From contig MU057377.1 in assembly GCA_013265495.1 (NCBI GenBank), forward strand, positions 526,939-590,938: a DNA stretch of 64,000 bases, in the 5' to 3' direction. The translations under genes were made by a program, and so were the position numbers. Below are positions 1 through 35,518 of this stretch, in pieces (positions within the stretch are counted from its first letter, which is position 1; each line of letters opens with the position of its first letter). This stretch comes from Vicugna vicugna. Its lineage: Eukaryota. The notes beneath the pieces were generated by a model. It did not search any database. It was not told where the DNA came from and worked only from the letters and a program-made list of their open reading frames with translations.

Positions 1-379
1 CAGGTAAGCTGCCATCATTATTATCTGACACCTACAAGTAAAATTAAAACCAAGACGTTATTCGTCAAGGGCAATGCCTGTCAGAACCATCACTGACGAG
101 TCACTGGGATCTCAGGTTTCGCCGGTTGATCTAGTTTTGCCCCCAGTATCCCGCGGTAAGAACCTGCCTGTAAAACTACCGCGGCCCGGCTGGGCTCAGT
201 CACTGAGGTCAGCACGTTCCCACTCCCTGTACATTTAATTGTCCGCATTTCCCCCCCTTCGGCCCCAGGAAACGCGGGGGGGAAGCTCGGGAACGTAACC
301 CCGGGCCGGAACTTGCGGGAAGAGGGAGGAGTGAGCCCATTCTGCCTACTTAACGGTTTTACCTAAGGCTGTCCCGGCA

Positions 380-1030
380 ACCGCAGTGACTGCTGCGTTT
401 ACTGTGGAAGTGCTGTTACTCTCTTCCCTTCAACCGACAGGTTCACAAACCAGCAGCGAGGTTCAAGTCTAAGCCCGGGTCTCAGGGGCACCGAGACCTG
501 CCGCCATTCTCGCCTGCTGCGCAGAGAGCGACGCGCGGCGTCGGCACGTTTAAATAAGGCGCCGTCGTCTGATTGGCTAGGCGAATGCCTGCTGATTGGT
601 CCCCCGCGGATGTGGGCGGGCCCTGACGCGCCCATTGGCCGAGGCGGGAAGTTTAAACGGAGCGCAGTGCCTCCGCCGTCCGCTCCTGAACTGGAGTTTG
701 CGATTCTGTGGGGCCGCCGCTTCCCCGGGGTCCCGGCCTCCCGACAAGAAAGGGGGCAAGTGCGCTCCAGGTCTCCGCGGCTCCCCCGAGGGGACGCGGT
801 CGGCGTTCCTGTAGGTGCCGCTCGAAGCAGCCTGGCAGGGCCCGAGGCCGCCATGGCGACCTGGCGTCGGGGGCGCGGCTGCTGGGAGCGGAGCCCGCCC
901 GAGCGGAGGCCGCCGGCGGGGCTGCGGGGCCGCCGGGCCGAGGAGGAGGCGGCGTCCCCACCGGTCCTGTCCCTCAGCCACTTCCGCAGGTCGCCCTTCC
1001 TCTGCTTCGGGGACGCTGCCTGTGGTCCAT
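380..1030 (+). promoter_or_regulatory. CpG island; ASPM-type cell-cycle promoter (orphan copy)
   Basis: Very CpG-dense. ATTGG (inverted CCAAT/NF-Y) at 572-576, 595-599 and 634-638; GC box GGGCGGG 614-620; CDE GGCGG 643-647, a 4-nt spacer, then CHR-type TTTAAA 652-657. Directly followed by ASPM exon-1-like coding sequence. Confidence 0.85.
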
Positions 1031-1032
1031 AA
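853..1032 (+). pseudogene. ASPM: Truncated duplicate of ASPM exon 1 (59-aa ORF; ASPM similarity ends near 1015)
   Basis: GCCGCCATGG Kozak at 853 encodes [54 protein letters not shown], matching the ASPM N-terminus (human [55 protein letters not shown], from memory), then unrelated AACGP and TAA. No exon-1 donor or exon 2 follows. Opposite strand to the intact ASPM in this window. Confidence 0.9.
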
Positions 1033-1699
1033 ACAGCTGTGTATGGTGGTTTATGGTTTCTGCTGTAAAACAAAACTTTAACTAGGTTTTGCTTTCCCTC
1101 TGCTTCAGGTTTGTGTGCTGATTCCACTCAACGTACCAAACCACTAAGTCAGTACGTACAAAAGTGATGTTTACTTTTTACAGATTCCTTTAAACTCTGT
1201 TGCCTTGTTTAATCACAACAAACTCACGGGGTCATTGTCCACATTTGCAGAGAAGGCAACACTGTCAAAGGGTCTGTGTCCGATGGGTCAGGGCTAGGCA
1301 AGGCAGCAGGCAGGTTCACGTCCTGAGTCTTCTGTGTGTCTCTTTTCTCATCTGTAACCTGGAACTCGTGCCAATGGCAGCAGTGCAGGGTGCTCAAATG
1401 AGAGAGCTTCAGGCAGAGGTCTTGACTCTGTGTCACGGATAAATGTTCTTCTCCCAATTTTTAATAGGAAATATGCTTAGGGGATATAAACATTTATGCA
1501 TGGTTTTAGTCCTGGCAGTTAACAACTGGGATCCCATCCAGGTCTTGTGGTTTGAAATGCCATGCACTTTCCCTTATACTGTTATAGGCACGTGGCGTGA
1601 TTCTTTCCTAAAGACGTCTGTCTGGAGGATGAGGGGAAAATTAGAAGAAGAAGAAGATGCTTCATCAAACAGCCCCTAAGGGTCTAGGGTTCTCTGAGG

Positions 1700-1890
1700 A
1701 GACAATGCTTGTCAAACTTAAGAGTGCATCAGAACCACCTGGAGGGCTGGCTAACCTGCTTTTGAGGCTCCACCCCCAGACTTTCTCAGGCCTTAGGCAT
1801 AGACTAGGGCTACAGTTTGCATTTCTAAGAAGTCCCAGGTGATGCCTGAGCTACTGGGTCCAGGGACCACCTTTGGAAAATCACTGTAGT
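1700..1890. mobile_element. MER5-type hAT-Charlie DNA transposon relic
   Basis: Motifs caaactt..gtgcatcagaaccacctggaggg, ttgcatttctaagaagtcccaggtgatgc, gggaccacctttggaaaatcactg typical of MER5A/B. Boundaries approximate. Confidence 0.6.
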
Positions 1891-3890
1891 GGAAAAGAAA
1901 TATTAGAATATCCCTTGAGTGAAACACCTCCCCCACCCTTGGTGAATGAGCATGTCACAGTGACAAACAGCATTTGTCTGAGATGAGGGCAACCACTTGC
2001 ATCAGACTTGTCTGGACTGCTTGTTAATTAAATCAGGGAAATTTCTACTCACCACTGCAGAATTACTAACGTGAATTTCTGGGGCTAAGTACAGAAAACT
2101 GCATGTCACACAGGTTTTATGTACAAAGATAACAGCTCAAGAACCACAGAGCTTTACTAGGTAAAGTGTTATATTTGCCACAGAGAGAGAGAAATTCACT
2201 ATTAGTATAAAAATGAATCTACAGGATTCATGAATCTAGGCCTAAAAAGGAATGAACGTCAGGAGACCTATGTTTTGTGGAGCAGGGTTATTGGGTAAAC
2301 TATCCGAGGAAAAATTTTAAGTGAAATTTGGGGTTTCTTTTAATCTTCTAAACATTTTTTTAATTGGATAGTATTGGTGTGTTAGAATCTCCATATGATG
2401 GTTGTAGTGTATGGGGTTGGTTGGTTTGTTTTTGAACAGAATAACTTGAGTCTTTTTGAGGACATTCAGTTAAAATCGCCACCCACCCTACTGAATCGGG
2501 TTGAGCTCCGTGGTGTTTGCTCCCTGACTGCAGCTGAAACCAGCCATTCGAGGGCCCCGCTGCAGCATCCCTCCTGGGGAGGGCTCAGGGCAGGGTCTGG
2601 GGTCTTTGCTTCTCACAAACCCCTCGAGTGAGCTCTGCAGCCCGTGCTGGGAACAACTCAGGTAGATGCTGTGTATCACAGGCTCCTTGGTGCCAGTTGT
2701 GGAAATAGAAGCTCCTGCTACAGACGAGTACGGGCTGTAACGTGAATTTCCCTTCTTAAGAAAATAAGTCTCCTGTCTTCTGTCTGCAATGAGTTTGATG
2801 CTGTTTTGATGTGACTGAAAGACTTGGCTGAAGTTGCCCTGGCTCTTCCCAGGCTCCTTCGCAGCCAGGTTTCTGGAAGTTGTGTCATTGCATGTATGGC
2901 CACAAGGTGGCGGGCCAGCTCCATCTGACAACAAGCAGCTTCATTTGACTGGCTACCCCTGTCACTTTCTGATGTGTCACTAGTAAAAGTGTGTCACCTT
3001 TCTGTAAACCATGACCACAGAATCTTAGGACTAGATGGAAATGTGAGAGAGCATCTTGTTTATTGATTGTCATCCTGAGGTTCATTCTTTAAAAACGCTC
3101 TAGAAATTTTTTGAGTCAAGTGTATGTGTCGTTTGGCATGGCTGCCTAAAATCTCACAAACTTAAATGTGATCATGTACGTATGTATAAGAGTAGAATTA
3201 TACCTTATTTAAGTTAACTTATTTCATGTAAGTGATTTTCCTTTTTTGCTACTGTTTTCTCTCCATGAAATTTTATTTACTGCCTCTATTTGACTAGCAG
3301 TGACCTCAGTTGTTTTTCACATGCATTTCCAGAGAACAGCTTAATTTCCTGAACTGACTGTTGTCATACAATCCTTTGTGAGTTGGCCTAGAGGTAAGCA
3401 CCCCATTCAGATTTTGAAAATAGATACCTTTTTTTGTTATATATTTTTAAAAGACTATTTAATAAAATATGGTTTCACTATAAAGGCATTTGGGTAGCTT
3501 GATCTTTCAGTATGAAATTTAAGATCCTTTAACAAATGCTTATTGGGTTAATAGACCATGTTGTTGTATGTTATTGCCATTTTTTTATGTAGCAATTTTC
3601 CTGTCAGTTTCTTAGATAAATATAATTTGGTACTGGATATAATAACAAGTAGAGTAAGCTCTTTTCTGAATATTTACGAATGACGATTCTAGGCTGTTTT
3701 AAATATATTTTCTAATTTAAACCTGTATAAAACCCAGTCAGGTGTGTGTCATTATTTCCACTTCACAGGCAGAACAGGGGCTTAGATGTTAAGTGACTTG
3801 CTGAATGCCAGTGACTGGTCAGGATTTGAATTACACCGGTCTGATGCCATTGCAACCATTTTGATGGAACCCTGCTCATTAAAACATCAT

Positions 3891-4020
3891 GGTGGGTAGA
3901 GGGCACAGCTCAGTGGTAGAGCGCAGCCTAGCATGCATGAGGTCCTGGGTTCAATCCCCAGTGCCTCCATTAAATGAATAAATAAACAAACAAACCTAAT
4001 TACCACTTTCCCCCATAAAA
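3891..4020 (+). mobile_element. tRNA-derived SINE (camelid Vic-1-like)
   Basis: A box (agctcagtggtagagcg) and B box (gggttcaatcccc), then an aataaataaacaaacaaacctaattacc tail. The same family recurs three more times in the window. Confidence 0.8.
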
Positions 4021-4529
4021 GTCATCGGAATTTGAGTTGTTCACACGGTGCACAGTCCAATAATATTTAGAATGTTAAAACTAATTGAATTAGAATACCA
4101 CTAGGAGGTGACTGTTTAAAAATATGCTTTTATTAAAAATCCTCACTGTTTTCATTTCCTTTAGTCTCTTCCTGGTATACTCATATTTTCTTTAGGCTTT
4201 TTACCTTTATCATGTCAGAAAATCTGATGGTCCTCCGGTAGAGAATGTTCTCGGGACTCTGCAGCAGGCTGGACAGAGAACACAGGATGTATCTGAGGTG
4301 CGTGGAATAAAACCAGGCAGAACTGACCTCTGCTGCTAGAAGTTGTGTTTACCCTGGGGGTGGGTGCACCAAGGCCATGGCTTCAGGCAGGATGGGTAGG
4401 GTGTATCCTACTTCTCCTTTGGATGCTGATTTCATAGATTTGTTCAGTTTGTGAGAATCCCTTGATCTGTGCATTCATGGCACATGTGCTTCTCTCTTCA
4501 TATGTTGCATTTTAATAAAAGTTCCCAAA

Positions 4530-4757
4530 TTGGGAGTTTGAGATTTACATATGTTAGCCACCAAAGATAAAAATAGATTTAAGAAATAAAAAAAAAATGT
4601 CCTCTGTATAGCACAGGGAACTATGTTCTATCTTGTAATAACCTTTAATGAAAAAGAACATGAAAAGGAATATACGCATGTATACGCATGACTGAGATAC
4701 TGTGCTGGGCACTAGAAAGTGACACATCGTAACTACTTCAACTTAAAAAAAAAAAGA
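4530..4757 (+). mobile_element. LINE-1 3' end fragment (cetartiodactyl type)
   Basis: tgggagtttgagattt...tgtatagcacagggaactat...aaagtgacaca...tacttcaa + A tail; same motif set as 27445, 31040 and 61471. Confidence 0.75.
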
Positions 4758-5229
4758 AATGATAGTAGTTCCCAGATCACAGTATTATTTTGTAGTTTAA
4801 ACTAAAACCCATTAGCATGTAAACTCCATGAAGGCCATCACTGGAATCTATTTTTTCACCTCTGTATACCCAAGATTAGAACATGTCCTGGTGCCTACTG
4901 GACGCTGAAAACATTTTACATAAATGATAATTTAGCACACCACTTATCTCATCGGCTATCATGGCATACAAGCCTCTCACCGGCAGACACTGCCATCAAT
5001 AGTATTACTGAAAGTACTCCATCACTGCTCGGGACAATCGCCTTTCCCTTTCTCAGTGCAGTCTAGACTGCACCGAATGTTAATATCAGGGACCCATTAT
5101 CTCACGTACCTAAGGTCATCCTTTCATTTGATCGATGGTGGTGAAGAAATCAATGGCCACAAGTGAACTTCACTCTCTGACCTTACAACAGGGAATTCAA
5201 GTTGAAAACGTGCCCTGTTTTTTATGCAG

Positions 5230-5504
5230 CCTGAGTTAATGATTTGTGCTGCTCTTACTGTCGCCCTGACCGCTTAGTGTGTTCTTCGTGGACGGTGGCA
5301 TGAAAAGTAATGTCAGTTAACACAACTGTGTATTTTCAGTATTCTTCTAAACTATTTTAAATGAAATGCAAGGCTTGTTACAAAGGGACTTAGACAGATG
5401 TCGTAAATAATTAACTTTTTTTTTCAGGAGAAGTACTGTGTACTTAACAAGGGGTCCCTGGTGCTGTAGCACTGGTAACACCTGTATTAAGCACACCGCT
5501 GAAG
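5230..5504 (+). promoter_or_regulatory. F13B liver-type proximal promoter with HNF1-like sites
   Basis: GTAAATAATTAAC at 5403-5415 (near-consensus HNF1 GTTAATNATTAAC) and GTTAATGATTTGT at 5235-5247, upstream of the F13B ATG. Confidence 0.55.
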
Positions 5505-5568
5505 ATGGGATCAAAAGACTTGGCTGTTATTATCCTATTAATCATCTCAGGAGAACTCTATGCAGAAG
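5505..5568 (+). CDS. F13B: F13B exon 1 (signal peptide)
   Basis: ATG 5505; MGSKDLAVIILLIISGELYAE; donor G|gtaaaa. Confidence 0.95.
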
Positions 5569-8500
5569 GTAAAACGAAGTTTTTAATATTCTTTATTCCC
5601 TAAAAATTATCAAGAGAAATTCTAACATTCATTTCTCTTGAGCATTTAATATAGTCTTTCGTTTACATATACCAATTTTATTAAGAACATATTTCTTATA
5701 AACATAATTTGTTGTAATATTTAGACAGGATTTTTTTCTTTGGGGAATATTACTAAACTATTTGCAGAGTAATATAACTTTGAAAACCAAAACAAGACAA
5801 AAAGAAAAATGAAACACCTTTTGCATGTCTAGTTTTGAGGGCATAGGAAACCAGGATCCACATACTTTAAAGAATTTTCAGGCTAAGAGTGCCAACACTT
5901 GGAAGTTGTATGTTAACCTTAATTCTAATTTCAGACTAGAATCCATTCCTAACAGTGCAAAGCTTGTACAATTTTAATTCTTGTTCTTAAAGTGAGTTAA
6001 TGTGGTAAATTTGAAAAAGAAATAACCGTAAATCATCAACAAGATTTTTGACTCTTGACACCTTGATTTTTATCCTAATTTATTCTTTGGTTGAAGACAT
6101 TAAGTAGTGAATAGTAGGAGAACCATAGGGTTGATTGTATCAACAAAGACACTTCTAAGAGTGGGAACGGGCTTTGTCAATACTCGTGTGGGAAAACGGG
6201 TAAATCAGGACTGTCCAGACAAGCGATACCTGTGGCCTCCCGTGCTGTGGAAGGCTTCACGGGTGGACTGCCTAGTGTGTGAGATGACTGTGTGAGTGAG
6301 GCCAGCTGGTGGTTACTTAGGAACAGTTAGTGGTGTTCTTGGTCTTCATGGATAAGAAACCAGGCAGGTCAGTGGGTGTCAGCAAAAGGCTCACCCCAAA
6401 TAGGAAACCACAGCAATAAGGCTCTTTTAAAATACTTTAGGGAATCTGTTGAAATAAAATACCTTACAAATTATAATCGTCTTTTAATTGAATAATTTAC
6501 TATAAATTTTCTACCAAAAAGGCCCTGAAATTGAAATTATGAAACTGAAATGAATAGCATTCATCTTAACTGACATATTTACTTCTACGATAAGAGAACT
6601 TTTGCATGAACAGTTTCTCTTGATTTTATTTTTCTGTTTAAATAGGGAAAAAGCAGCTAATACAACTGTCTATTATCTATACCATGAAAACATTGCAATA
6701 TTCTGGCTGATTTTCTAATTATTATGTGGATATGATATTAATGTTATATTCTTTACATTATATGTTATATTATTATACACATTAATATTATATTAAGAAT
6801 GTATATAATATAAGGAATGTAATATATAATGTAACGAATGTACTCTTCTTTCACACAAACAAAACGTGTCAGCTTCCTGAAGACAGGGACCACCATCTCT
6901 TATGCCCATGCTTTCCCCACCCTCATCGGGAAACTTAGGGGCCAGACTGAGTTAATTGTACTTCTCATTTCATACAGTCATCACTGGCCTATGAACGGTG
7001 TCACTTTTGCTTTTTTGATACATTTTCCCTCTTTATTCCAAACCCTGAATTCCATTTCTCGGAGGACCCATTTGGAGCCACTATAACGTGTTTGATCTAT
7101 CCTTAAATGTGCAAATATCTTTGTAAACTATGTCTGTGTTTTATATATTCTCATGAACAGAAGCTTGCCGTAGATTTTACCCCCTTACTGTTTCCATTTA
7201 CTTTTATTATATAAACATGTTTCCCTGCTGCTGAATCTAGTTTGTTGCTCTCGGTGTTATGTCGTGTTGTAGTGTTTCATGTATTTGCTTACCCACTCTC
7301 CTAATGGTGGCCACAGAGTTCCCTCGAATTTCCTCCTAACTACGAGCAACTCAGAAATGAATGCTGTCCTGTCATCACCTTATTTCACTGTGACACTTTT
7401 TCTGGCCAGTATCTACTCCTTTGTGGGACAATGGCTCAATTCTTTTTCTTGATTTCCTGATTTATATCAGATTAGCATTTTTCTCTGCCTTCTGCTTCTA
7501 AATAGTTGATTTGTGGGAGCTTTGCAGATTATACATTTTAACTTCCTGTCAGTTTTAGACATTGCAGTTTTTTTCTTCCTAACTGTGATGTGTGTGTTTT
7601 GTGAACAATGATTTTCATGGAAAGAAATCCTTAATTTTAATTTAATCAGATTCAACAATTTTGCCTTACAGTTTCTGTTCCCTGCCTCCCCCCATGCACG
7701 TCTGAATCAGACAGTGTGAATGGTGCCTTTGTAATTGTGCACATGGAGACCTTGGTGTCATAAACTTGGAATTTTCAAAGTTTATATTCTAGTGTGCCAA
7801 TTCGCCTACAACCATTCTGCAACTTCCCACATTTAATGGGGCTGTTTGCAGTAAGTAGCATGTTTCCATGCTTAGAGCTTCTACTTATTTCTTCTTTATC
7901 TCACCAGCACCTTCCTGTGTCTAGTTAAGGATATTCACTATGCAAATTTGAAATCCTTGATCCTGTTTTATTGCTTGTGCTCCATTGGGCATTGATTGTC
8001 CATTTGGCTGACTTTCTTTTGTTGTGGTTCAGCTCCTCCTGTTTCTCATTATGTTTTTCTTATAAATTCACCTTCCCCAAGACATATCTGCCACTTGGAC
8101 AGGTAACGAGCCTTCCTGGGGCAGGACGTGCCGCTGGACAGAGAGTCTTTGAAGCCACCACCTAGGATTGGCCCTTGTTTGCTCCCCTACCCCTTCTGTG
8201 TTCACCAGAGCACTGCTAGTTCTGAAGGGTCTTGGTTGTAAACCGTGGTGGTCTGGGTATGGAAAATGCCGAGAATCCTCAGGGTCGGGGGTGCCCCTGC
8301 ACATGCTCATGATCTGCTCTGCCCCTCCATCAGATTCTGGAGGGTTCTGTTATCCATAACTCCTTGCCCACGTCCCCCAGCCCTGCGCTGGCACTGCTGT
8401 TATTTTTTGTCTCCTGGGTAGCAGGAAGGTTGACTGTGACCCCCAAGGCATTGCAGGCAGGGGAGTCCCCGCTGCCCAGCCCTTCTTCCCCACACCTCTG

Positions 8501-11500
8501 TGCCCTCCCAGCCCAGCTCCGAGGAACTGCTCCAGGGTTTGTTTCTTTTAAGTGTTTTTATGATTTTTAAGGTCTCCATCGTTAAGGATGGATTTTTTTT
8601 TAAATAAATGTCTTATTTGGAGTATAATGTACACAGAAAAGTGCAAAAATATTGCAAAAATCGTAAGATCCCCTTCTGTAAATGGTTATGAAATCTTCCC
8701 GCACCCAGATCAATATATAGAACATTAATTAGCCAGAACCCAGGAGCCTCTTAAATTCTCCTCTAAGGATAATGCCCAAGTCGCCATCCTGACTTCTCTG
8801 ATCACGGACGACTTGGCCGCAGGGTGATGTGCCCACGGTTAGGTGGAAGGAAGCTTCCAAAGGGATGCTCTCAGGACTCAGGGCTGACGGGTCTTCCAGA
8901 ACAGGGGCGGTGCTGCCAAAGCCCAGCTCACCAGAGAGCAGGGGGAAGCCTGCCCCTCACCCCCTGAGCCGGAACACATTCCCAGAAAGAGGGCAGGAGC
9001 CTCAGGAGAGCTGCGGACTGGCCTGGGCCGACGCCCTCCCTGTGGCATCCTCCTCTTCATCCTGGCCAAGGGGCAGAGGACGGGAGGAGGGCCGTCTGCA
9101 GGGGACGCAGGCTCCGCAGACCACGTGCCCACAGCGTGGGCGGGGATGAGCGCCAAGGGTGGGGGTCAGGGCCTCCCCTCTGCCCACCTCCTGAGGCTGG
9201 GTGCGGGGTGCTGGCCCGAGGAACAGGCGACCTGCCCCCGCCTGGCCTGACTGCCGCCTCCAGAATCTACAGTCCTCGGCCTTTGGCCTCGATTCTGGTC
9301 CTTGCCTCTCAGGTCACCGAGGGCGCGTGGAGCCCAGGCCGCTGCCAGCCCAGCCCCTCCTGAGAAGCCAACCAAAGGCAAATAAAGTTATTGCATGTTT
9401 GAGTGGAGAGAAGAAAAAAAGAAAAGATCCAGCAGAGTTTCGCAGCGGGTCTGCCGTGCCGCGCAGGAGGGGCTCCGTTAGGTCAGCGTCCTCTGGGAAA
9501 GTCCTGCCCACAGCCCTGGGCACCGGGTCTTCCTCCCAGAGCCCACCCCCCACCCCGCCCACCGGGTCCTGCGTCTGCGTGGAGACGGGGGTAGGTGCAC
9601 AGCCTGCCCAACAGCGTCAGGCCCTACGGTCCACCGCCGACCAGCGGCAGCCTCGGCTCCATCACCCGCGGGCTGACTCCGGCTCCCGCCCGGCTCCGCT
9701 CGGCCGGCACAGCTCTCGGACCGCCCAGGGCATCACCAGAGGCCGAGTGGTACCAGCGGCTGGCTGGTAGTGCTGCCCACATCCTCGCTGGAGGAGGCCT
9801 TGCTGATTCCTCCTCCCATGAACGGGTTTCATGTTGCTCTGTGGTGTGGCCGGAGCCTTGAGGCATCAGAAGGGACTTCTCTGTGGTTCCCCTGGGCCCT
9901 GTCTGCTGCTGCCTGGGCACCCACATCCGGGCCCCGGCGGTGCTTCTGAGCAGCTGTGGTCAGAAGCACTGTCATCTCTGCTGGCCTAGGAGCCAGTCCA
10001 TCTCCTGCCCCATCCTGGGGCTCCTCCTTCAAACCACAGCCAAGTTCAGCCCAGCCGGAGCCACCCCACACCCAGCGTCCCCAGCTGGGTGCCTGGAGAT
10101 GGGGGTTAGGGGGGGTGAAACAGGTGAAGGGGGTCAAAAGGTACAAACTTCCGCTTATAAGTAAGTCCTGGATCTGTAATGCATAGCATGTTGACGATAG
10201 TTAATGATACTGTATCACATCGTTGAAAGTTGCTAAGAGAGTAGATTGTAAAAGTTCTCAGAATAAGAAAACAGAACTTGTAACTATATGTAGTGATGAA
10301 TGTCAACTAGACTTAATGGTGGTGATCGTTTCCAGTATATACAAATATTGAATCATTATGTCATATGCCTGAAACTAGTATAAAGGTCTATGTGAATTAG
10401 ATCTCAGTTTACAAATCACACATTTACTCATATGTGACTGGCTTCACTCAGTCGTGTGTCTGTGAGATCTGCCCTCAGCATCCACCATCCCTGTTGCTGT
10501 GCGGTACCTGCCATGTGCACAGTCTGAGGTGCGTTTATTTTCTGCTGTCGCTTGGCTGCTATGTCTGGCTGCACAGATCTGGTTTGTGCATATTCTGCTT
10601 TGACAAAAACTGCCCAACTGTTTTCTCGTTGAGATGTTGCACCAGTTCACACTGACTTGCAGTGGTCTGAGAGTTCCCTCTTCTCTGTGTGTTCACCAGC
10701 CACTGAGGGAGTCTCTGTTTTCCGTGTCAGTCATTTCAGTGGATGTGCGGACTACCTCACAGTCATTTAAACTTGCATCTCCCAGGTGACTGGTAAGGCT
10801 GAGCCTTCCTTACTAGATTTCTGACCACTTCAATGTGAAGTTCTCCCTCGAGTCTTTTAATTATTTTTTAATTGGTTGTCCGTCTTTTTCTTAAAAAGCA
10901 AAACAAAACAAAAGCCATTCATTTCAAAATCTGCAACTTCAAATATCTTAAGGAGAACCTCATCTATTCTAGAATTCTGTCCAATACTGGTGGCCACTAG
11001 TCACATGTGGCTCTTGAAATGCGGCTAGTCCAAATTGGGATGTGCTGTGTCAATGCACACTGGAGTTCAGACTTAGAAAGAAAAATACTTTTAATATATT
11101 GGGTCAAATAAAACCTGTTAGAAAAATTAACTTCAGCTGTTCCTTTGATTCATGTGGCTTCTAGAAATTTTAAAATTACACACGTGGCTTGTTATATTTC
11201 TATTAGAAAGTGCTGTTTGACAAAATCAGGAAAAGCTTCTCTGAGGAAGCAGCCTGCCCAGACTTATCTGACAGTTTAGTGCTCGGGTTGGTGGCAGATT
11301 AATTCTGATGGAAAAGGATTGTCACAAGCATGCTTTAAATATTTAGGTAATAAAAATAAGTACTGAAGTACATGCAAACACATGGAATTTTCAAATGTAT
11401 TGTGGCTTGATCACAAACTGTATGGTTTTAAATGTAGTTTTCAGTCTTCAGCTTGACATTTACTCATTTCAGAGAAACCCTGTGGTTTTCCGAGTGTGGA

Positions 11501-24739: not shown

Positions 24740-24899
24740 AAATGAATGGCAGAAAGAAGAATAGTATGTCAGCACATCACAAAATCCCTTATAAGACATA
24801 ATTGTTAGAAGAAAAATGTTGAATTAAAAACCTCTAAGTTTTCGCTTGCTTGAAGAGTTGAATCTAACGTGTTTATGCTGAACATTTTCTTTATTTATA

Positions 24900-24905
24900 A
24901 ATAAA
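24900..24905 (+). terminator. F13B polyadenylation signal
   Basis: AATAAA about 160 nt after the stop, followed by GT/T-rich sequence. Confidence 0.7.
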
Positions 24906-27444
24906 AGGCAGAACATGTTGTTTCATTTTTGGTCTGGATAATTTGACATGCGACCTAATCTTTGTTACATGTCTTTGATCTATTAAAAAATCGACCTGCA
25001 CATCAAAATATTTCTGGTTCCTAATGCCCACTCACTGGACTATACTGTTGTCGTGAATATCTGTGCAAAAATTCACATTTGACCTTATTGTCTTCACTAA
25101 TGTTAGCATCTTCTGCTACCTTCAACTTAATATTTATGTCAACACCAAAGAACCAAGCACACTTGGGCTGAGAAACTGTACGTTATGTTGCAGGACTTAT
25201 TTTATTAAATTCAGAAGAGACTGCCCTTCAGACTTCCTACGTGTAAAGAACTTTTGAAATTAACTGTTCTGTTAGTGCCAAGGCTAATAATCAAACTGTC
25301 CGTGAGTTAGCAAACCATCCTGAAATGAGATGCTTACAGGGGTTTTCACAAAGACACCACTGACTGCAGTGAGGACGGACGGGGCCGAAGGAGCAAAGTG
25401 CAGGCTGGGGGAAAAAGCTTAGGGAAATCATCATCCAAGGAAGACATGACAGCATTCCCACTGCGGGGGCGGGGGCGGGGCTGGTGCTAGGCAGCCTGGC
25501 GCAAGAGAGACTTAGGATGTGAAATCGTCACAGATGATTAGATGGGGTGGGAGGTGAGGTGGAGGACTGAGGTTTCTGGCTTGACTAAGGGGATGGGACG
25601 CCCACTGACGCGTGACAGGAGGAGCTGGCGGAAGACATGATGTGCGGGAGCGGGGGTTAGCACGAAGATGTTAGTTTCAGAAAGGTTCTGTTTAAGCTGT
25701 TTGTGGGGCGGTCAAGTAAACGTTATGAAGCAAGCCGTTGACGCCTGTGATCAGAGCTGTGGTCAACCACCCAGATTACCCTCAGAAACAAGACATAGCT
25801 CTCAGCTGCTGGGAGCTCTCCATGGTCGGCTCCGGAGGAGATGGCCTCATGGAAGAGAACCTTTTCTCCCAAGGTTATAACCTCTTTCCAGGGTGCCTGC
25901 ACCAATGGCTGGTCAACAGGCATTATAAAGACCCCACACTCCAACACAGGACAGCCCAGCTCGAGCTCCCCGGAGAGCTGGCTGATACCACTGGTTGAAA
26001 CTTCATTGCAGCTCACCCTCTCTTACCTGCTTCCTTCCTCTCCCATCCACAGGTGTGGATTCTAATAGTCCTCCCTGAAAACCTCCCTGGCTCTTAATTT
26101 CCATCGCAAAGCCTGTTTTCCTGGGAACCCAATGTGTTGCTTTTTAGAGAACTTTATGTTGCAGGACAGTTTTTATCACGGTGACTATGGAAGCACACTT
26201 TGCTTAGGTGATGTGCCGTCCTTGTGGGACAGGGTTGCTGTGACAAAGATGAAAGGGTGGCTAACCCAGGGATGCCCCTAGGGCGATCCAAAGCTCAGAG
26301 TGGCGTGGCCCGCTTCTGCACAGGGAAACTTTAATTTTTCAAAGGGAAGTTAAGAATTCATAGACAGCTGTCTATTTCTTTGTAAAAAAAAAAGATCAAA
26401 ACATTGGAGAACATCACACATTAAAACTGGATTCAGGGCAACTCAGCATGATTTCTTCGGAGGAAAAATGGAGAAAACGGGAAGAGTAAAAAGTCAAATA
26501 TAAACTGGGCAGGTTGCCTAATACTTCTTCTCAAACGCAAATTGAAGACCAGTTATTAGACAATAGGCTGGTTTCAATCTGACAGAGATTTTAACTTGTT
26601 TTTATATATGTTCAAAAATAACTTGAGAGAAAAATAAGAATTCAGTTATGTATTTATTTAGCAACAAGTCATTTTTTTATAACCAGATATCATAAGAATT
26701 CCAAGTTTTAAATTGATTTTTTCCCCAAATATAAGAGCTACTTGTCAGCATTGTAAACAGCTCAAACAATACAAATGTAAATAGAATAAAGAAAGAAAAT
26801 TTTCTTTATTCTTCCCAACACGCTGGATCTATTTCCTCAGTTCAGAGATTAGCCCTGAAAATAATTTGCTCCATGTCTTTCAGACGTAAATATACCCACT
26901 TCAGTGTGTATTTATATACACACATGCATATTTTAATTTATATATATGAAGTGAGATATATAAATATTATATATCATAGTGTGTATACTGTTCTAAGACT
27001 TTCATTTTTACCTATCACCTACAGACCTGTCACCTTATCAGTTTATGTGGATTGATCTATTCTCTGATTGATGGACTTCGCAATCGTTTTATCTTCCTCA
27101 CTTCCCTCCTTCCTTCCTCGCTCATAGGTTGTAAGTGGAAATCAAATAAAAATAATGTAAAGCTGAAATGAAATAGTAGAATCCTAAATATATTTAAAAG
27201 AACAAATGTAAACACCAAAAAAGATCTTAATATTCAATAAGCTTAGATGTTGGAGGAGAGGGAGGGGAGGAGAAGGAAGAAGTCGTGAGCCCATATTGTT
27301 TCCCAGGAGAGGAACAGACAGATGTTGCCCCAAAGTTGAGGTATTAGTAAAAGAATTAGCATAAAGATGACTCTTCTCTTACCTCTCAGGAAATTCCAAG
27401 GGTTTGGAGAGCTATGAGCCAGGAACTGTGGATAAAAACCAAAA

Positions 27445-27698
27445 CAGAAAGACATAGAAAACAAACAGAAGAAGAAAGTGGGTAGGGAGGGATAAATTGG
27501 GAATTTGGGATTTGCAGATATTAACTACTAAATGTAAAATAATAAACAGCAGGGAACTATCATCAGCACCTTATAATAGCCTCTAATGAAAAGAATATGA
27601 GAAGAAATACAGGTACGTATGTGTAACTGAGCCACTAAGCTGTGCACCAAAAGCTAACACAACATTGTAAGTAGGCTATACTTCAATTAAAAAAAAAA
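27445..27698 (+). mobile_element. LINE-1 3' end inserted in a probable MER21-like LTR fragment (about 27370-27770)
   Basis: L1 3' motifs ending in cttcaattaaaaaaaaaa; flanked by ctcaggaaattccaaggg...gccaggaactg and gaccaaat motifs of MER21-type LTRs. Confidence 0.6.
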
Positions 27699-29199
27699 CG
27701 ACAAATACGTATTTCTCATACATTTTTGGTCATCTGAATGACCAAATGTGTATTTTTCCTGTGACTAACACAAGCCCACTGTAGGACGCACACGAGTGAG
27801 CCCCAGCGTGAGCGTGGATGTTGCGCTGCCCTTGCCCCCTCATGCAGCAAGTACCCCGTCTGGGCTGGGAAGTTGGTAGTGAGGGAGGCTGCGGGTGTGG
27901 TGGGAGGCAGGGACTACATGGAAACTCTCCGTACTTTCTGCTGTTTTGCTGTGAGCTGCTTTAGAACATAAAGTTTATCTTTTAAGTGAAAGTAATCTGT
28001 ACGGTACATAGTATGATCAGCTTGTCCATTTTCCGTGCTGGACCGCCACCTAAGAACCCCTGTGGGGCCCAGCGGGTGGAGCGGTCTCTGTCTGGAGCTC
28101 GCCAGATAAAGGTGTTCTTGATCTGTTTTCTGCTGTGGATTCCTGGCAGTTTTGTGAAGCTCCTGGTCCCTTCCCAGAGCAATGTTTTCAAATATAATGA
28201 AACCACAATTACCATATTTAAGTACAGTTGCTATCAAAAGTGTTCAGTGTGTGGTATTTTAATACACCAAACCCTTGCTTGTCCCCCACCCCTAGATTTA
28301 GTGTTAGAAAATCCCCGTCTGATCTGGAGACGTGCCTTTCCAGCGAGAGGACGTTTCCAGCCTCCCTGGAGGCTGGTGGCCGCAGGACTACCCAGCGGTG
28401 AGCTGGTCACCTAAGGGGGCATCAGATTAGGAAAAAGTAAATTTTAACAACAACCAAATGTTTGTAGATTATGTTTTGAAATGTATAATTAATGTATATA
28501 TATAGTTGCATTTTAATAGAAAGCTTTTAGAAAGATTATGATTTTCTGTGGTTCTTCCACATTGTGGGCATAAGAGAAAAATATAAACATAGATTTAAAA
28601 TGGTGGAATGTTCATAAATTTGGAGTGTTTGTAACCACTGCTAGCTGAATGAGGAAAGGAGGAAAAAGGGCCATTTACCACATAGAACAGCTTAGCATGG
28701 CCTTGCTCCGTGTGCAGTCACTACTGTGGACACTACGTGTGTTAGAGACAGACAGTCAAGACTCTCCAGCTGAACTGCTGGGTCCACGTTTATCGTCCCC
28801 ACCTAACAGGCTGTGTGACCTTGGAAAGTGTAACTAGTTTTCTAGTGTATGAACTAGGAGTAACAACTTGACGAAGATGTTGTAAGGTTTTATACAGCTT
28901 ATACTTAATAAGGTGCTAAAAATAGTACTTGGCTAATGTTAACAAAAATTAGCTATTATGGAAAAGAATCTGAAAAAGAATATATATATATATTAAATAT
29001 AGATATATCTGAATCACTTTGTTGTATACCTGAAACATTGTAAATCAACTATACTTCAATAAAAAGACTAAACATTTTTAAATTAGCTATTTAGATTATT
29101 GCATAATCTTATTTTATCCTAAAATATTCATCAGGTTGATGTTTTATTAGTCCATAAAAAAGATTATGACTATTAATTAATATATTTTTCTACTTTCAG

Positions 29200-29394
29200 A
29201 TCCATATATAATATCTGAAGAAAACATGAATAAAAATCACATACAGTTAAAGCTGAAAATGACAAAAAATATTATGCAAAAACAGAGGAAATCATCGACT
29301 TTACGCATAATTGGGGTGTAGCGCAGATACGTTAATGCCACCATTTCGAGCAGTGTGTTGGGAAGGGGTGGGGGGCTGCCCCAGGTGTGTGTAA
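29200..29394 (+). pseudogene. Decayed complement factor H-related (CFHR3/CFHR4-type) terminal exon
   Basis: Acceptor tttcag at 29199, then DPYIISEENMNKNHIQLK / ENDKKYYAKTEEIIDFTH / LGCSADTLMPPFRAVCWEGVGGCPRCV* across two frameshifts. Matches the last SCR of CFHR4 (..CIITEENMNKNNIQLK..KYYAKTGDTIEFMCKLGY..FQAVCREGIVEYPRCE, from memory). Cys1>Tyr, Cys2>His; AATAAA at 29506-29511. Confidence 0.85.
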
Positions 29395-29809
29395 ACAGGC
29401 ACTGCCACCCAAATGTGAGGCCACCGCCCAGCCGGCCACCACGCTAACTCTCTTGCTAAGACCACTTTTGATATTTTTCTGCTGTTCACTACTTTATTTC
29501 AAGAAAATAAAACTGACATGAGTTTCTTTTTTCAACTTTGTATCTTCTCATGCTTATGTTAAAACAAATTAAACCATTAAACTTTGTACCAAGACGATAT
29601 TAACTATTTTTACCTTAGTCCCTGATACTAGACTACTTATCAACAGACTAATGAGCTCAGGAATGGTGGTGATGACTCTATGGCCTTCTCCATATTGAAC
29701 AGTACATTTAGACATTCAGACAAAACCAGTGAGCTTAGAATTTATTTGGGGAAATATTGCAAACATAAAATTAGGTATTAAAATAGCAAGTGAGAACATC
29801 CACACTGGG

Positions 29810-30957
29810 GCCTAGAAGAAGAAGGACGATCCAGTCCCGAAGTTAGCAGAAGGAAGGGAAGAGCAAAGACCAGGCAGAAGTAAATGCAATCATCATAGGT
29901 TACAAAATTGAGACTTGCTTTTTTAAAAAGATAAAATCAGCAAATCTTTAGCTAGACTAAGAAAAAAGATTTAAATACATAAAATCAGAAATAGAAGTGG
30001 CAACAGATATAACAGAAATACAGCAGCGCATAAGAGATTACTGTAAACAATTACATACCAACAAATTGGATGACCTAAAAGAAATGCATAAACTCCTAGA
30101 AAAATATGACCTAGAATCGCAAATAAATAGAAAATCTGAACAGACCAATAACAAATCAGGGTTTGAATTAGTAATCAAAATCTTCCAACAAAAAAATGCC
30201 CAGAACCAGATGGTTTCCCTGGTGAACTCCACCAAACATTTAGAGAAGAATTAATGTCAACCCTTCTCGAACTCTTCTGAAATACTGAAGAGAAGGGAAG
30301 GCTTCGAAACTTATTTTGAGGCCAGCATCACTCTAATATGAAAGCCAAATAAACGATGCTACAACAAAGAAAACTTAAAACCTAATTCCACTGATAAACG
30401 TAGATGCAAAAATCCTCACAAAATACTAGCAAACCAAGTTCAAGAGCACACCAGGAGGACCACTCACACTGATCAGGTGGGTTTGTTCACAGGTCGCTAG
30501 TTTGGTTTGAATATGCATATCAATACGTGTGACACACCATAACAACAGAGTCAAGGGTAAATATCATATGATACTCTCACCAGATGCAAAAAAGCACTTA
30601 AGTTTCAACATTTTTTCATGATAAAAATTCTCAAAAAATTAAATATAGAAGGAATGCACCTCGACATAATAACAATAATAAAAAAAAGCCCACAGCTACC
30701 ACCACACTTAACGGCAAAAGGTTAGAAGCATTTCCTTTAAGATCAGGAACAAGACAAGGGTGCCCACTCTCACCACTTCTATTTGACGTAGTACCAGAAG
30801 TGCTTGCCAGAGCAGTTAGGCAAGAAAAAGAAATAAAAGTCGTCCAAATCAGAAAGGAAGAGGTTAACTTGTCTGTTTGCAGATGACAAAATCTTATATA
30901 GAGAAAATCTTAAAGATTCCACCAAATAACTGTTAGAACTAATACACCAATTCAGTG
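29810..30957 (+). mobile_element. Degenerate LINE-1 ORF2 (reverse-transcriptase region) fragment
   Basis: ATDITEIQ..IRDY.KQL..NKLDDLKEM; tttaagatcaggaacaagacaagggtgcccactctcaccact; ctgtttgcagatgac (FADD); many stops and frameshifts. Confidence 0.9.
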
Positions 30958-31039
30958 TCCTTAAATGTGCTGTGGAACTGCTAAAAGATTTTGCTGCGAG
31001 TGATGATACACTGTACCCTAAAAATACCAGTTTTCAACA

Positions 31040-31450
31040 CAGATGGACCTAGAGATCATCATTCTAAGGGAAGTCAGCCAGAAAGAGAAAAATTCCATAT
31101 GATATCACTCATATGTGGAATCTTAAAAAAGAAAAAGAAAATAAAGGTCAGCATGAACTCACCTACAAAACAGAAACAGACTCGCAGACATAGTAAACAA
31201 TCTTATGGTTACCAAGGAAAGGGGGTGGGAAAGGATAAATTTGGGAGTCTGAGATTTGCAACTGTTAGCCACTATATATAAAAATAGATTTTAAAAAGTT
31301 TCTTCTGTGTAACAGGGAACTATATTCAATGTCTTGTAATAACCTTTAATGGAAAAGAATATGAAAACGAATACATGTATGTATATACATGACTGGGACA
31401 TTGTGCTGCCCACCAGAAACTGACACATTGCAACCGACTGTACTTCATGA
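31040..31450 (+). mobile_element. LINE-1 3' end
   Basis: atggacctagagatcatcattctaag...catatgatatcactcatatgtggaatc...tgacacattg...tacttca. Confidence 0.8.
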
Positions 31451-32339
31451 ACAAATACATCAGTTTTATCAATATCAGGAGCACTGTTTAAGGTCTTACC
31501 AAGGAAAGTAGGGGCCTGTCTTGGGATTCAAGAAAATTTGGCTAAGGGAGAAAAAGGAGAGTCAAGGACTTCTTCAGCATCCTGTTAAATACCTAAGTGG
31601 CTGCCACTTTCTCACCTGCCCAAGTGGAGTCATCTGGAGATGTTTGTCTCCCTAAACCACTTCCCACTATGATCTACTGAATTCAACAGTGTCACTGCGT
31701 GTGGATTTTTCCAAGCTCTGCTATGAAGACATTTCCCTCCAGGAGAGGAACAGAGGAGGATGGGAGCAGCCAATTTTTTTTTAACTGTATAAATATTTCT
31801 CAACAGTATGCTCTTTGACCAATTTTCAGAAGCTATAAATGCTTATTTTTTAAAAATAATTTTGCCCAGTTTTATTTCCACCTTTTGGGGAGAGACTATA
31901 TGAAATTCCTCATGTAGCCAGTCTTAAAGCCCCTCCTAAATAAATTGATTTTGAAATATAATTTTTTCAAAAATTTCACAAAGTATTATTCGGCAAAATT
32001 ATTCTTGACTAGATTTAAAAAAAAACTAGAAAAATACAAAGACGATGAAGAGGGAACCTAATACTTAGTGCCCCTTGAAGAGGAATTTATAATAATCACA
32101 AGACTGGGGCTGTGTTGGAATGAGGACCGAAGACCTGCACTTGGCTGTCTTCTGAAAAAGCTGACTCCCTGGTCAGCAAGAGGACAAGGGGCTCCACCTC
32201 TCCTCCTCAATGGTCCATTTCTGAATGCTTCCAAATCAGACGCTTAGTAACTGCAACAGCAAAGAAGGTGCATGGCTATTACCATGCTCAAATATCAAGT
32301 GATGAATTCAGATTATTAATGTGAAAACATGATAAGACA

Positions 32340-32585
32340 TTATTTAATTATTTCACACTACCCTCTGTGAACTTTGATATTTACCAAAAGGATTTCGTTA
32401 CACTAGCTTTCTGGTAGTGCACTGGATTCAAAGTCATGCTTATAACTGTAAATGAAAGCAGGATTCCAATCAACACTACGACTGCTGGACCATTTATAAT
32501 TACACACAACTGCAATAATCTAGCCTGTTGCTCTTAATTCATGTCCTTCTAATATGGATTTCTACTGTTGGGGGACAAGGTAAGT
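32340..32585 (+). pseudogene. Orphan CFHR (CFHR1/2/5-type) promoter and exon 1 with ATG>CTG
   Basis: 32525-32579 reads (CTG)LLLIHVLLIWISTVGGQ G|gtaagt, matching CFHR5 MLLLFSVILISWVSTVGGE (from memory). 5'UTR-like aactgtaaatgaaagcaggattc; HNF4-like TGAACTTTG 32368-32376; FOXA-like TATTTAC 32378-32384. No downstream SCR exons found before ASPM. Confidence 0.82.
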
Positions 32586-33029
32586 TGAAAACATGAAAAC
32601 AGATCTGAATATTTAGTTCCTCTCTCAAATGGGTGTACATCCATTTTTCAATGTGGTGAGAACATTGTGAATGAAGGATCATCATTTTAATGTATTTGTA
32701 TGAAAATATTTCTAGGGAAAACAGAATGAAATTAATTTTCTCTGCTCTTTGAGTTATAAAGAATAAATAGCCACCAAACACATTTGGAGAAAAATTAAAT
32801 GATGAAAAATCTGCATATAATGAAACTGAAAGGGCAAAGTACCAGTGTAATTCTGCACAAATCCTGCAATGCCACTAACCGGGAAAAGCATCCCAAGAAA
32901 ATTCGAAGACCTTCAAAATGTTTGGATATCTCAGATTTGTTAATTTAAGATTTAAATATTCTTAAAACCAGGAATTTTCTACTCTAATTTAATTACCATT
33001 TAACAAAGAAAGTTTCTTATTTATTCATT

Positions 33030-33610
33030 ATTTTTTAATTAAAATATAGTTCATGTACAATAGTGTGTTAGTTCCAGGCATACTACATAGTGATGGGGTA
33101 TTTGCATACAGTCATTTGCATAAGTGATCACCACACAAGTCTAGTAACCATCTGTCCCCAAATTATTACAATATTATTGTTCATATTCCTTATGCTGTAT
33201 ATTACACCCTTATGGCTTATTTATCTTATAGCTGGAGGTTTGCACCTCTTAATCCTCTTCATCTACTTCACACCCCCCAATGGCAACCAATCACTCTTTA
33301 GCTTTCTGTATCTGTGAGTCTGTTTTCATTCTGTTTTGTTTTTTAGATTCCACATGAGGTCATACAATATTGGTCTTTCCTTGTCTGACTTAGTTCACTT
33401 AGCATAATACCTGCTAGCTTCACCCACGTTGTCACAAATGACAAGATTACATTTTTTATGGCTGAGTAATATTCACATATATGTTTATGTATATTTCATG
33501 TTCTCTGTCCATTCATCTACCAGTGGGCACTTAGGCTGCTTCCACATCACACCTATTGTAAAGGCTGCTGCAGTGAACACAGGGGTGAAAATATCTTTTT
33601 GAACTATTGT
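33030..33610 (-). mobile_element. LINE-1 3' end (L1MA-type), antisense
   Basis: tagattccacat..gaggtcatac..tttccttgtctgacttagttcacttagcataatacc..tttttatggctgagtaatattc. Confidence 0.8.
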
Positions 33611-33829
33611 CTCATTTAATAAAACAATATAGTATATCCTTATTTTTATATGTAATAAAACCAGTGAAATATCAATAAGTTATTTGCCTTTTCTAAGTTT
33701 TTCAACAAATGTTGAAAGTGGAGAGAAATTGTACCTCACTTCCTCATCAACACTATAAAGTATGTCTCATAATATTTTAAAAATTGTTTCTTGTTTCTCC
33801 TTATTTCCTATTGAAATAAAACCTGTCAT

Positions 33830-34440
33830 ATTCATCTAATTGCAAATGAAGCCTCTAGCAAGGTCTGCCGGAACTACTTGTTCCGGGGACTCCCGCGTCT
33901 CTCCCCTGCTCAGCTCCGGCTGCCTATTTTCACTTCCATTTGGTGGAGACAGAAACTTGCATTTGAGATGAGCTGATGAGCTCCAGCACCAGGCTGCCCA
34001 CTGGACACGCACCAGGCATCCTCCTTCTGTGGCCAGTTGATTCGGACATGCGTCGGCCACTGAGGACTGTTGTGAGCAGCGCTTGGGTGAGGGGTGTGCT
34101 TTTGGATCAGTTGGTTCTGACGTGCGTGTGCCCCTGAGGGCCCTCTGCATTTAACAGAGTGCCTGATTATAGACTGATGAGAGCCCAGACTAGGCAGTCT
34201 GACGGCGTGCTTTGTTCTCTGTGCTCCGTGTTGATCTGTGGCTGTCACTCTCCCTGGGGAAATGGGAAATTCTGGTTCCATCCGTGAAACCATCTTGGAT
34301 GAATTCTGACTGGAAAGCTTTTAGCTATGAGCCTATCACTAAGAAAAAGATACTTTATTGTAACACTGTGTGGCCACAACATTCTTTAGACTCCAGAGAA
34401 AACTGGTTAAGGTGAAACTCTCGAAAATTCCACACTTTAT
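33830..34440 (+). mobile_element. Class I ERV (ERV1) leader/gag-matrix relic
   Basis: ATG GGA AAT (MGN) at 34262 and, in another frame, WKAFSYEPITKKKILYCNTVWPQHSLDSRENW, resembling the gammaretroviral MA motif (KKKLIFFCNTAWPQY.L...E.W). Frameshifted. Confidence 0.65.
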
Positions 34441-35278
34441 TGGAAGAAAAAAAAGGCAAAAAAGTTACCCCCAAATTTCCAGTTAATTTCACTATATTAA
34501 TATGTCAATAAGGTCTTTACATCTATTCTAACCAAATCTCAGACAGCTTCCCACTAATTGGGTTTAACCCTTCTTGCAACAAATTAATTAAGTAAGTAGT
34601 TAACTGGTCTCTCCATTTCTAACTACTACTGATATCTTTTAAACAGTTAAAAACGGTCTTGGCCAGCATATCGAGACGACTCTGGGACCCTATCAGATTT
34701 CACACAGCCCTGGCATCAGGCTTCTGTGGCCTTGGGCCCACATAATTCAGTACAGGTGACAGGGACCCAGAGCTACAGAAAATAACAAGTTGTGTTTTAA
34801 CACTGAGTTGTTTCCAGGCCCGTGCTGTGTTTCTAGACAAGTTTCCATTATAAGCAACAGCTTGCTCTTCCCAGGTCAGTGGTCACCCCACTCAGTTCAA
34901 AGTTGAGGATTTTCAGTATATGAAGGGATAGGTTGAATTCATCTAACTTACCCAAAGGGCTCACCTGCCTGTCTAGGTGGTCCCGTCAGTCAGGAGACAC
35001 AAGGATGTTTTCCAAGATATTGTGGGTTATTTTATCCTCTTCTCACTTCTAAGTGAGTTGGCAGAGTCTTACATTTCCAAGATTTATTTTAGATAAATGC
35101 CTCAATATACCTACAAAAAAGGAATAAAAAGCTAATCTTTTGCCTTTAGGAATGTGACTATATTCAAACTAATACAATATTTCAAGATGACAGACATGAA
35201 TAACTGTTGAGATCATTTTATAACATTAGTTTGTTACATGCGTAAAGCTATTAAATAAAAGAAACCAAGGGTATAAAG

Positions 35279-35284
35279 TTTATT
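35279..35284 (-). terminator. ASPM polyadenylation signal
   Basis: TTTATT on + (AATAAA on -) about 130 nt past the ASPM stop; a second one at 35083-35088. Confidence 0.65.
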
Positions 35285-35415
35285 TGTTATGTATCTTTTT
35301 TAAGTTTAATACAAAGTCAGATTTTAAAAGCTGTACAAAGAGAGCAAAAGACACTTTAGGTACGTGTCACCAGCTTTAAGCTTCTTTCACTGCCCACTCT
35401 GAAACGTCTGCGTCA

Positions 35416-35518
35416 CTAATAGGGGATGCCAAGCGTGTCCATCACCATCTGAATAGCTTTCAGAGGATTCATGCTTTCTTCCACCTTATCTCTTCTCAAA
35501 ACCCAGTCTGGCTTCAGT
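35416..35518 (-). CDS. ASPM: ASPM exon 28 (last coding exon)
   Basis: [33 protein letters not shown]; 103 nt. Confidence 0.95.

Follow-up and report, generated by a model that had tools for sequence, protein, structure and literature searches.

A 64,000-nucleotide window of the Vicugna vicugna genome (GCA_013265495.1, contig MU057377.1, called C44 below, bases 526939-590938) holds the genes F13B and ASPM facing each other, and the best-supported reading, to which we give a probability slightly above one half (about 0.55), is an inverted duplication of an ASPM>F13B pair followed by complementary losses in the two arms. F13B encodes the coagulation factor XIII B chain, a clotting factor, and ASPM is a brain-size and microcephaly gene. 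In human and mouse, the standard mammalian order is CFH - CFHR genes - F13B - ASPM - ZBTB41 - CRB1. The last four of these genes are also named as conserved neighbours of CFH in a figure legend of PMC7768046. A Chinese hamster gene model (P0115, labelled 'coagulation factor XIII B chain-like') joins ASPM residues 590-2615 and then F13B residues 210-519 in one protein, that is, most of ASPM and four to five F13B sushi domains. The fusion reflects an annotation that read through two tandem genes, which indicates that ASPM and then F13B lie on one strand in hamster.

The vicuña assembly comprises 2.03 Gb in 12,405 contigs; C44 measures 612,366 bases and ends 21.4 kb beyond the right edge of the window. 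All coordinates below are those of the window unless a contig is named, and values above 64000 lie beyond it on C44. Exons were mapped by tblastn with the Camelus ASPM (P0001) and F13B (P0121) proteins as queries. An original prediction, made from the window alone, had claimed the order ASPM 5' relic (+), F13B (+), CFHR last-exon relic (+), CFHR first-exon relic (+) and ASPM (-). We confirmed these five features in this order and on these strands. They are listed here with the smaller pieces found beside them, C10547 being a small contig of the same assembly.

1-852, + strand: ASPM promoter CpG island, copy P' (bases 1-1015 being the reverse complement of C10547:6105-7119).
853-1030, + strand: ASPM exon-1 relic, codons 1-58, truncated, with its splice donor lost (tblastn with P0001).
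1031-3076, + strand: piece of ASPM intron 1 (R_left), matching 85315-83242 in inverted orientation.
3072-4215, + strand: relic of ASPM intron 6, exon 7 and intron 7 (blastn to 73080-72119, minus strand).
4215-4300, + strand: ASPM intron-18 piece, matching 48646-48560 on the minus strand.
5505-24740, + strand: F13B, 12 coding exons, apparently intact (tblastn with P0121; last exon by eye).
29205-29391, + strand: relic of a CFH/CFHR last exon (short consensus repeat 20, SCR20), with two frameshifts and one stop (tblastn).
29961-31460, no strand assigned: old LINE-1 and short interspersed element (SINE) debris between the CFHR relics (RVT_1 match, genomic copies).
32364-32577, + strand: relic of a CFHR promoter and first (signal peptide) exon, with CTG as start codon and the splice donor retained.
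35422-64000, - strand: ASPM, of which the window holds the part between the last exon and about exon 17, and which continues past its edge (tblastn with P0001).

F13B and ASPM are convergent, with 10.7 kb between their stop codons, and not one N occurs in the 85,428 bases that extend from window base 1 to the right end of the contig. Since both genes lie on this same gap-free stretch, they are convergent in either of the two scaffold layouts considered below. The order, strands, junctions, copy numbers and divergences given here were all read directly from this assembly.

Upstream of F13B, sequence homologous to ASPM was found a second time in the opposite orientation, as five match blocks (1-1015, 1031-3076, 3072-3893, 4014-4215 and 4215-4300). 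The four ASPM blocks on the + strand stand in gene order, starting with exon 1 and its promoter and followed by pieces that correspond to 85.3k, 73.1-72.1k and 48.6k on the working copy. Such colinearity of the inverted copies is expected of one larger unit rather than of scattered insertions. The relic begins with an ATG at 853, and residues 1-58 of Camelus ASPM align at 853-1026 with 91% identity by tblastn; a CpG island is present at 501-1000 (73% GC, CpG observed/expected ratio 0.99). Bases 1-1015 match C10547:6105-7119 in reverse complement at 99.7%, with a single difference in bases 1-950 (99.9%). Set against the full exon 1 of C10547, bases 951-1030 differ by three substitutions and lack 23 bp between GGAC repeats, and at base 1004 the relic has a Cys codon, as does Camelus ASPM, where C10547 has a Ser codon. 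The homology to C10547 stops at 1030, and the junction (J1) therefore lies at 1030/1031, after the 23-bp deletion at ~1010; the original prediction had expected it near 1015. Its private substitutions, the 23-base deletion and the Cys codon mark the stretch beside J1 as a lineage of its own, which argues that this junction is real.

The intron-1 piece at 1031-3076 aligns to 85315-83242 with 92.9% identity over 2074 columns by blastn (94.3%, with a Kimura two-parameter distance, K2P, of 0.059, in a global alignment). We ruled out that this block is a transposable element, since it has only four genomic copies and two of them extend into the flanking ASPM intron 1. The next piece, from introns 6 and 7, was recovered by blastn against 73080-72119 in two parts, 3072-3893 at 78% over 835 columns and 4014-4215 at 82% over 208 columns, with a K2P of 0.150 over 941 globally aligned bases; within it, an exon-7 relic with a 6-bp deletion is recognisable at ~3332-3393. 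The last piece, 4215-4300, matches 48646-48560 in ASPM intron 18 at 85% over 87 columns and ends 1.2 kb before F13B exon 1. The pieces abut at sharp junctions, at 1030/1031 (J1), ~3074 (J2) and 4215 (J3), and no further ASPM piece was detected in 4300-11400 by DNA comparison at E up to 1e-4. For the intron 6-7 and intron-18 pieces, the ASPM partner is the only other copy in the genome, so that these inner pieces are paralogous fragments and not dispersed repeats. Being 6 to ~15% diverged from the working ASPM, the pieces belong to a separate decayed locus and not to a misplaced part of ASPM. The idea of an inverted ASPM copy on the left that lost its body was thus strengthened by three extra colinear fragments, from intron 1, introns 6-7 and intron 18. 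Moreover, with F13B and the ASPM fragments immediately ahead of it both on the + strand, the ancestral relative orientation ASPM>F13B is reproduced.

The F13B gene itself was recovered in 11 of 11 exon matches to the Camelus protein, covering 651 of 658 residues on the + strand without an internal stop. Exon 1 lies at 5505-5573 and the ten sushi exons lie between 11457 and 23559; a 12th exon, found by eye at ~24707-24740, reads ...MLSYQEPLKT and then a stop. The gene has therefore the signal-peptide exon, the ten sushi exons and the short C-terminal exon of F13B, all open. Identity to Camelus ranges from 81 to 98% per exon in the high-scoring segment pairs, some of which extend into intron, and the sushi-7 exon is 97% identical to F13B of Camelus dromedarius. 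F13B is single copy, since its sushi exons match ten genomic places, all on the + strand of C44, and the four other matches are distant sushi genes at 29-40%. Two stretches of unusual composition were noted in this gene. In intron 1, bases 8001-10000 have 59% GC, rising to 68% in 9501-10000, with a CpG observed/expected ratio of ~0.5, and no tandem repeat was found there. The region of the sushi-6 exon, 18001-18500, has 68% GC and a ratio of 0.91, forming an island within a coding exon.

The working ASPM gene lies on the minus strand, where its exons on C44 cover residues 96-3311 of P0001 except residue 729. The last exon is at 35422-35520, exon 2 is at 79883-80038, past the window, and the gene runs to the contig end at 85428. 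Exon 18, the large IQ-repeat exon, maps to 50447-54724; a single-exon query spanning 50378-54760 was 97% identical to ASPM of Camelus bactrianus. The exon-3 translation gave one match in the whole genome, and the ASPM body is single copy. Each of the two genes thus survives in one arm only, as judged from ASPM exon 3 and the F13B sushi exons. As in the sushi-6 region of F13B, a GC- and CpG-rich island lies within coding sequence in the middle of ASPM exon 18 (52501-53500, 62-63% GC, CpG observed/expected ratio 0.96-0.97). At both islands the encoded protein is rich in Ala, Arg and Gly, and they look like hot spots of GC-biased gene conversion.

Between the two genes, remains of CFHR genes were found on the + strand. 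The SCR20 relic at 29205-29391 is made of three colinear tblastn pieces in three frames with one stop, and has a joint E of 3.6e-10 against the C-terminus of buffalo CFH. No DNA-level copy of it was found elsewhere in the genome, and no SCR19 relic was found in 28000-29200 at E up to 1. Peptide searches over 23600-35500, which were noisy, gave a CFHR-type signal-peptide match at 32555-32584 that led to the exon-1 relic. Other CFH-like signal-peptide matches, at 28691-28768 (E 0.5-2) and 35002-35034 (E ~1), were dismissed as chance. The exon-1 relic at 32519-32577 reads LLLLIHVLLIWISTVGGQ followed by GTAAGT, with CTG at the position of the start codon, and the CFHR gene on contig C10886 reads MLLLTTVILPLWLSSAHGQ followed by an identical intron start. 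Upstream of exon 1, promoter homology of 75% over 100 bp (32364-32461) is colinear in the relic and in the C10886 gene; no other DNA-level copy of the exon-1 relic was found by genome search. Both relics are heavily decayed, even more than the ASPM pieces, one being seen at the protein level only and the other only via the 100-bp promoter homology. Their + orientation facing ASPM on the minus strand is what an order CFHR> <F13B <ASPM would leave after a loss of F13B. The debris between them includes a LINE-1 reverse-transcriptase match (RVT_1, E 1.8e-5) in 30602-30883 and a SINE- or LTR-like (long terminal repeat) element at 31020-31457 with many genomic copies at 84-88% and none above 88%. 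Except for such old repeats, all at most 88% identical, the 10.7-kb spacer is unique in the genome. As no repeat above 88% is there to mislead an assembler, a false join in the spacer appears unlikely on evidence internal to the assembly. The two other predicted junctions stand as intervals, ~25000-29000 and ~32900-35000, inside which nothing contradicting them was seen.

These observations would be explained if, in a camelid ancestor, a unit made of the ASPM upstream region, ASPM and F13B had undergone an inverted segmental duplication next to the last CFHR genes, thereby giving a palindrome-like structure. Each arm would then have lost what the other kept. The left arm would have retained F13B, and its ASPM would have been whittled by at least four deletions to five remnants, namely the promoter, exon 1a, some of intron 1, the piece from intron 6 through exon 7 to intron 7, and 86 bases of intron 18. 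The deletions would have removed exon 1b with ~1.2 kb of intron 1, exons 2-6, exons 8-18, and intron 18 to just upstream of F13B. In the other arm ASPM would have survived, while F13B and the body of the adjacent CFHR gene would have been lost, leaving one CFHR last exon and the promoter and first exon of the next CFHR as relics. The net outcome would resemble an inversion of F13B. We infer here that a single duplication carried the whole of ASPM and F13B, as well as the order of the deletions, the age of the event and which arm is the original.

The two arms differ unevenly, by 0.1% in 1-950, ~4-5% in 951-1030, a K2P of 0.059-0.062 in intron 1 and of 0.150 in introns 6-7, and ~15% in intron 18. 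The most plausible cause of this pattern is gene conversion that acted later on the longer inverted tracts; for the outermost part, an assembly collapse is the alternative. Small isolated pieces cannot be converted and therefore give the best estimate of age. At mammalian neutral rates, a K2P of ~0.15 converts to roughly 35-70 million years. As a rough estimate from sequence divergence, the event would be tens of millions of years old. It would predate the divergence of the two extant camelid tribes and might go back to the camelid stem, so that the rearrangement may be common to all camelids or more widely shared. That the two inverted copies of the ASPM 5' region (promoter, exon 1 and intron 1, ~3 kb, bracketing the F13B-ASPM interval of ~80 kb) are still exchanging sequence, with the 950-base CpG core, whose CpG content is undecayed, as a live conversion tract and an interval that could flip in camelid populations, seems to us improbable. 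If this were true, a crossover in the promoter part would leave ASPM intact, one in the intronic part would decapitate it, and the difficulties that the assembler met at either end of the interval would reflect this. As a side reading, the copy of the ASPM promoter that survives on the strand of F13B, 4.6 kb ahead of this gene, might be active.

The ends of the gap-free stretch deserve caution. A run of 4631 N lies directly left of window base 1. On the right, C44 stops inside ASPM intron 1, 113 bases past the repeat, and ASPM exon 1 is absent from that side of C44. It was found only on C10547 (8820 bases), whose minus strand holds the complete exon (MATWRRG...STFVLQ, then GT) and the beginning of intron 1. 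At its right end C44 shares exactly 40 bases with C10547 (C10547:4933-4972), and window base 1 is C10547:7119, so that the ASPM 5' piece inside C10547 (2.19 kb of intron 1, exon 1 and promoter) is bounded exactly by both ends of the gap-free 85.4-kb stretch. We joined C10547 to the ASPM end of C44 by this overlap and by colinearity with intron-1 paralogs on C10886 and C1354, which run colinear across the joint; this supports the C10547 piece as a true extension of ASPM intron 1 in the direction of exon 1. On either side of it, the flanks X (C10547:1-4931) and U (C10547:7121-8820) recur together in C3419 (96-98%) and C2125 (93-95%), where they flank an unrelated AT-rich middle of ~2 kb in place of the ASPM piece. 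Both flanks come from a duplicon spanning 30 kb or more, also found on C11346 and C10103, without CFH, F13B or ASPM content. We therefore ruled out U as true ASPM upstream sequence, since U and X are part of this unrelated duplicon.

Several points weigh against the duplication with complementary losses. The first concerns the lost genes: relics of ASPM were found, and no relic of a second F13B was detected in 24740-35400 at E up to 1e-4 for DNA or 0.01 for protein. The claim of an inverted duplication with reciprocal loss is partly supported, by the colinear ASPM relics, the single-copy genes and the orientation of the CFHR relics. The scheme also calls for a long series of events, with one duplication and no fewer than five deletions. 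The 40-base overlap of C44 and C10547 looks like a (k-1) overlap of a de Bruijn graph, suggesting that the assembly was built from short reads, with which such repeats are difficult to position, and C10547 probably arose as a gap-fill chimera. In bases 1-950 there is near-identity to C10547 next to sequence that is 5-15% diverged, which is odd for one old duplication, and this 99.9%-identical stretch sits at a contig edge next to the 4631-N gap; it may be a real second promoter copy held identical by gene conversion, or may have been borrowed from the true promoter. All support for the junctions comes from this one assembly. Among the public sequencing runs listed, 18 of 24 (7 studies, 4 organism labels) hold 77-88% of the words sampled from window 1-10000, which speaks to presence and not to adjacency.

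With these points in mind, the whole arrangement could be an assembly artefact, the true order being a tandem ASPM>F13B and the window a product of chimeric joins or of a misplaced inverted contig in a duplication-rich region. The gap immediately to the left, the 99.7% duplication of window 1-1015 on C10547, the exact 40-base overlap at which C44 ends in ASPM intron 1, and the hybrid nature of C10547 with its unrelated duplicon all speak for this. However, no gap interrupts C44 between window base 1 and its right end, the relics differ from the working ASPM by 6-15% with indels of their own and so are not the same DNA placed twice, and the 80 bases before the junction at 1030 carry their own three substitutions and 23-bp deletion. 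With only 1.2 kb to F13B exon 1 and ASPM exon 3 in single copy, an intact ASPM at this place would need at least three independent false joins, and the F13B-ASPM spacer is unique save for repeats of at most 88% identity. We consider an artefact very improbable. A real arrangement could also have arisen without any duplication of F13B, the gene having been flipped past the CFHR relics by at least two inversions or by an inverted transposition, with the ASPM fragments stemming from a separate smaller duplication. The missing relic of a second F13B fits this history, the region has other ASPM-derived duplications (a 2.9-kb intron-1 piece in CFHR introns on C10886 and C1354), and the unequal divergence of the pieces could mean different ages. 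Against it, four fragments from 37 kb of ASPM lie in order, on the strand of F13B and 1.2 kb off its exon 1, which independent insertions would reach only by chance, and a single inversion cannot account for + strand relics of a CFHR last exon and first exon that follow an F13B on the same strand. We consider this history unlikely.

The layout may also be real but not specific to camelids, having arisen before their split from other even-toed ungulates or earlier. The least-converted pieces, with a K2P of ~0.15 and a divergence of ~15%, and the strong decay of the CFHR relics are in keeping with such an age. So is, as a rough inference, the 97% protein identity of exon 18 and sushi-7 to Camelus, which makes the divergence of the paralogs several times that between the tribes. 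Yet the roughly 35-70 million years obtained with the rates above also permit an origin in the camelid stem, and we hold the wider distribution to be doubtful.

We then looked at the wider neighbourhood. Left of the gap, a + strand gene at C44:487.8-517.5k, ending at C44:517547, encodes a BTB domain (E 6.5e-21) and C2H2 exons. With its N-terminal BTB followed by C2H2 fingers and its position next to the ASPM promoter copy, it has the features of ZBTB41, which we take it to be from synteny; in the protein atlas it matched only generic C2H2 zinc-finger clusters and no named entry. The original prediction had suggested looking left of the window for ZBTB41-side sequence. A ZBTB41-like gene is indeed present there, although its link across the 4631-N gap to the leftmost ~950 bases is unsafe. 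On scaffold C10886, CFH occupies 15.99-16.05 Mb (+) and a CFHR gene (+) comes after it at the right scaffold end, and C1354 (16.9 kb) carries CFHR SCR18-20 exons (+). About 5.5 kb after the CFHR last exon, C1354:15954-16762 is an 836-base, 90% copy of C44:521488-522307, which lies downstream of the ZBTB41-like gene and left of the gap, and C44 and C1354 break off within 139 bases of each other. From these matches, the ASPM upstream region seems to exist twice, beside the ZBTB41-like gene and beside a CFHR gene. Two layouts fit the data: the one scaffolded, ZBTB41-like> ASPM' relic> F13B> CFHR relics> <ASPM, and an alternative, CFH> CFHR> (C1354) ASPM' relic> F13B> CFHR relics> <ASPM <ZBTB41-like, which keeps the standard global order.

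The 2.9-kb ASPM intron-1 piece was found in introns of CFHR-type genes, in the orientation of the gene, at C10886:16087267-16090116 and C1354:3426-6332, between SCR2-like and SCR18-like exons. These copies are 87-89% identical to the 1031-3076 block by blastn, and a tree of the four intron-1 copies groups the window with ASPM and C10886 with C1354 (78 vs 16 vs 5 informative sites). ASPM-derived sequence is thus being swept into CFHR duplicons.

Full-text literature searches, judged from entries rather than whole papers, gave no published account of this rearrangement. The instance is new; the kind of event is known, as is the region for its segmental duplications. If real, it changes the regulatory neighbourhood of F13B and of the microcephaly gene ASPM, both medically studied, in camelids. 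The region also flags a spot where draft camelid assemblies are unreliable, and comparisons of CFH-F13B-ASPM gene order need long-read confirmation.

Compared with the standard mammalian order, the vicuña locus shares the adjacency of F13B and ASPM, the BTB and C2H2 gene by the ASPM promoter copy, and CFH and CFHR on a nearby scaffold end. It differs in that F13B runs towards ASPM rather than after it on one strand, is preceded by ASPM pieces and is separated from ASPM by CFHR relics. The human CFH-CFHR cluster is known for segmental duplications, non-allelic recombination, CFHR deletions and hybrid genes. Low-copy repeats at 87-96%, including CFHR paralogs, and the repeated 2.9-kb block are a common trait, whereas here the duplication is inverted, ASPM and F13B are involved, the losses are complementary and no change of CFHR copy number is seen. 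Inverted repeats with arm-to-arm conversion and flip-flop inversion are known from the factor VIII intron-22 repeats and from sex-chromosome palindromes. Likewise, two inverted ~3 kb copies of the ASPM 5' region flank ~80 kb, with one tract at 99.9%; in contrast to those systems, the case is known from the sequence of one assembly and the near-identity may be an assembly effect. Finally, duplication with reciprocal gene loss can mimic a translocation or an inversion of single-copy genes. In keeping with this, both genes are single copy here and fragments of the lost ASPM remain beside F13B; in contrast, relics are left on one side of the loss only, the lost F13B having left none. If real, the locus would be a worked example of an inverted duplication with complementary loss imitating a clean inversion of a single-copy gene, its debris still readable.

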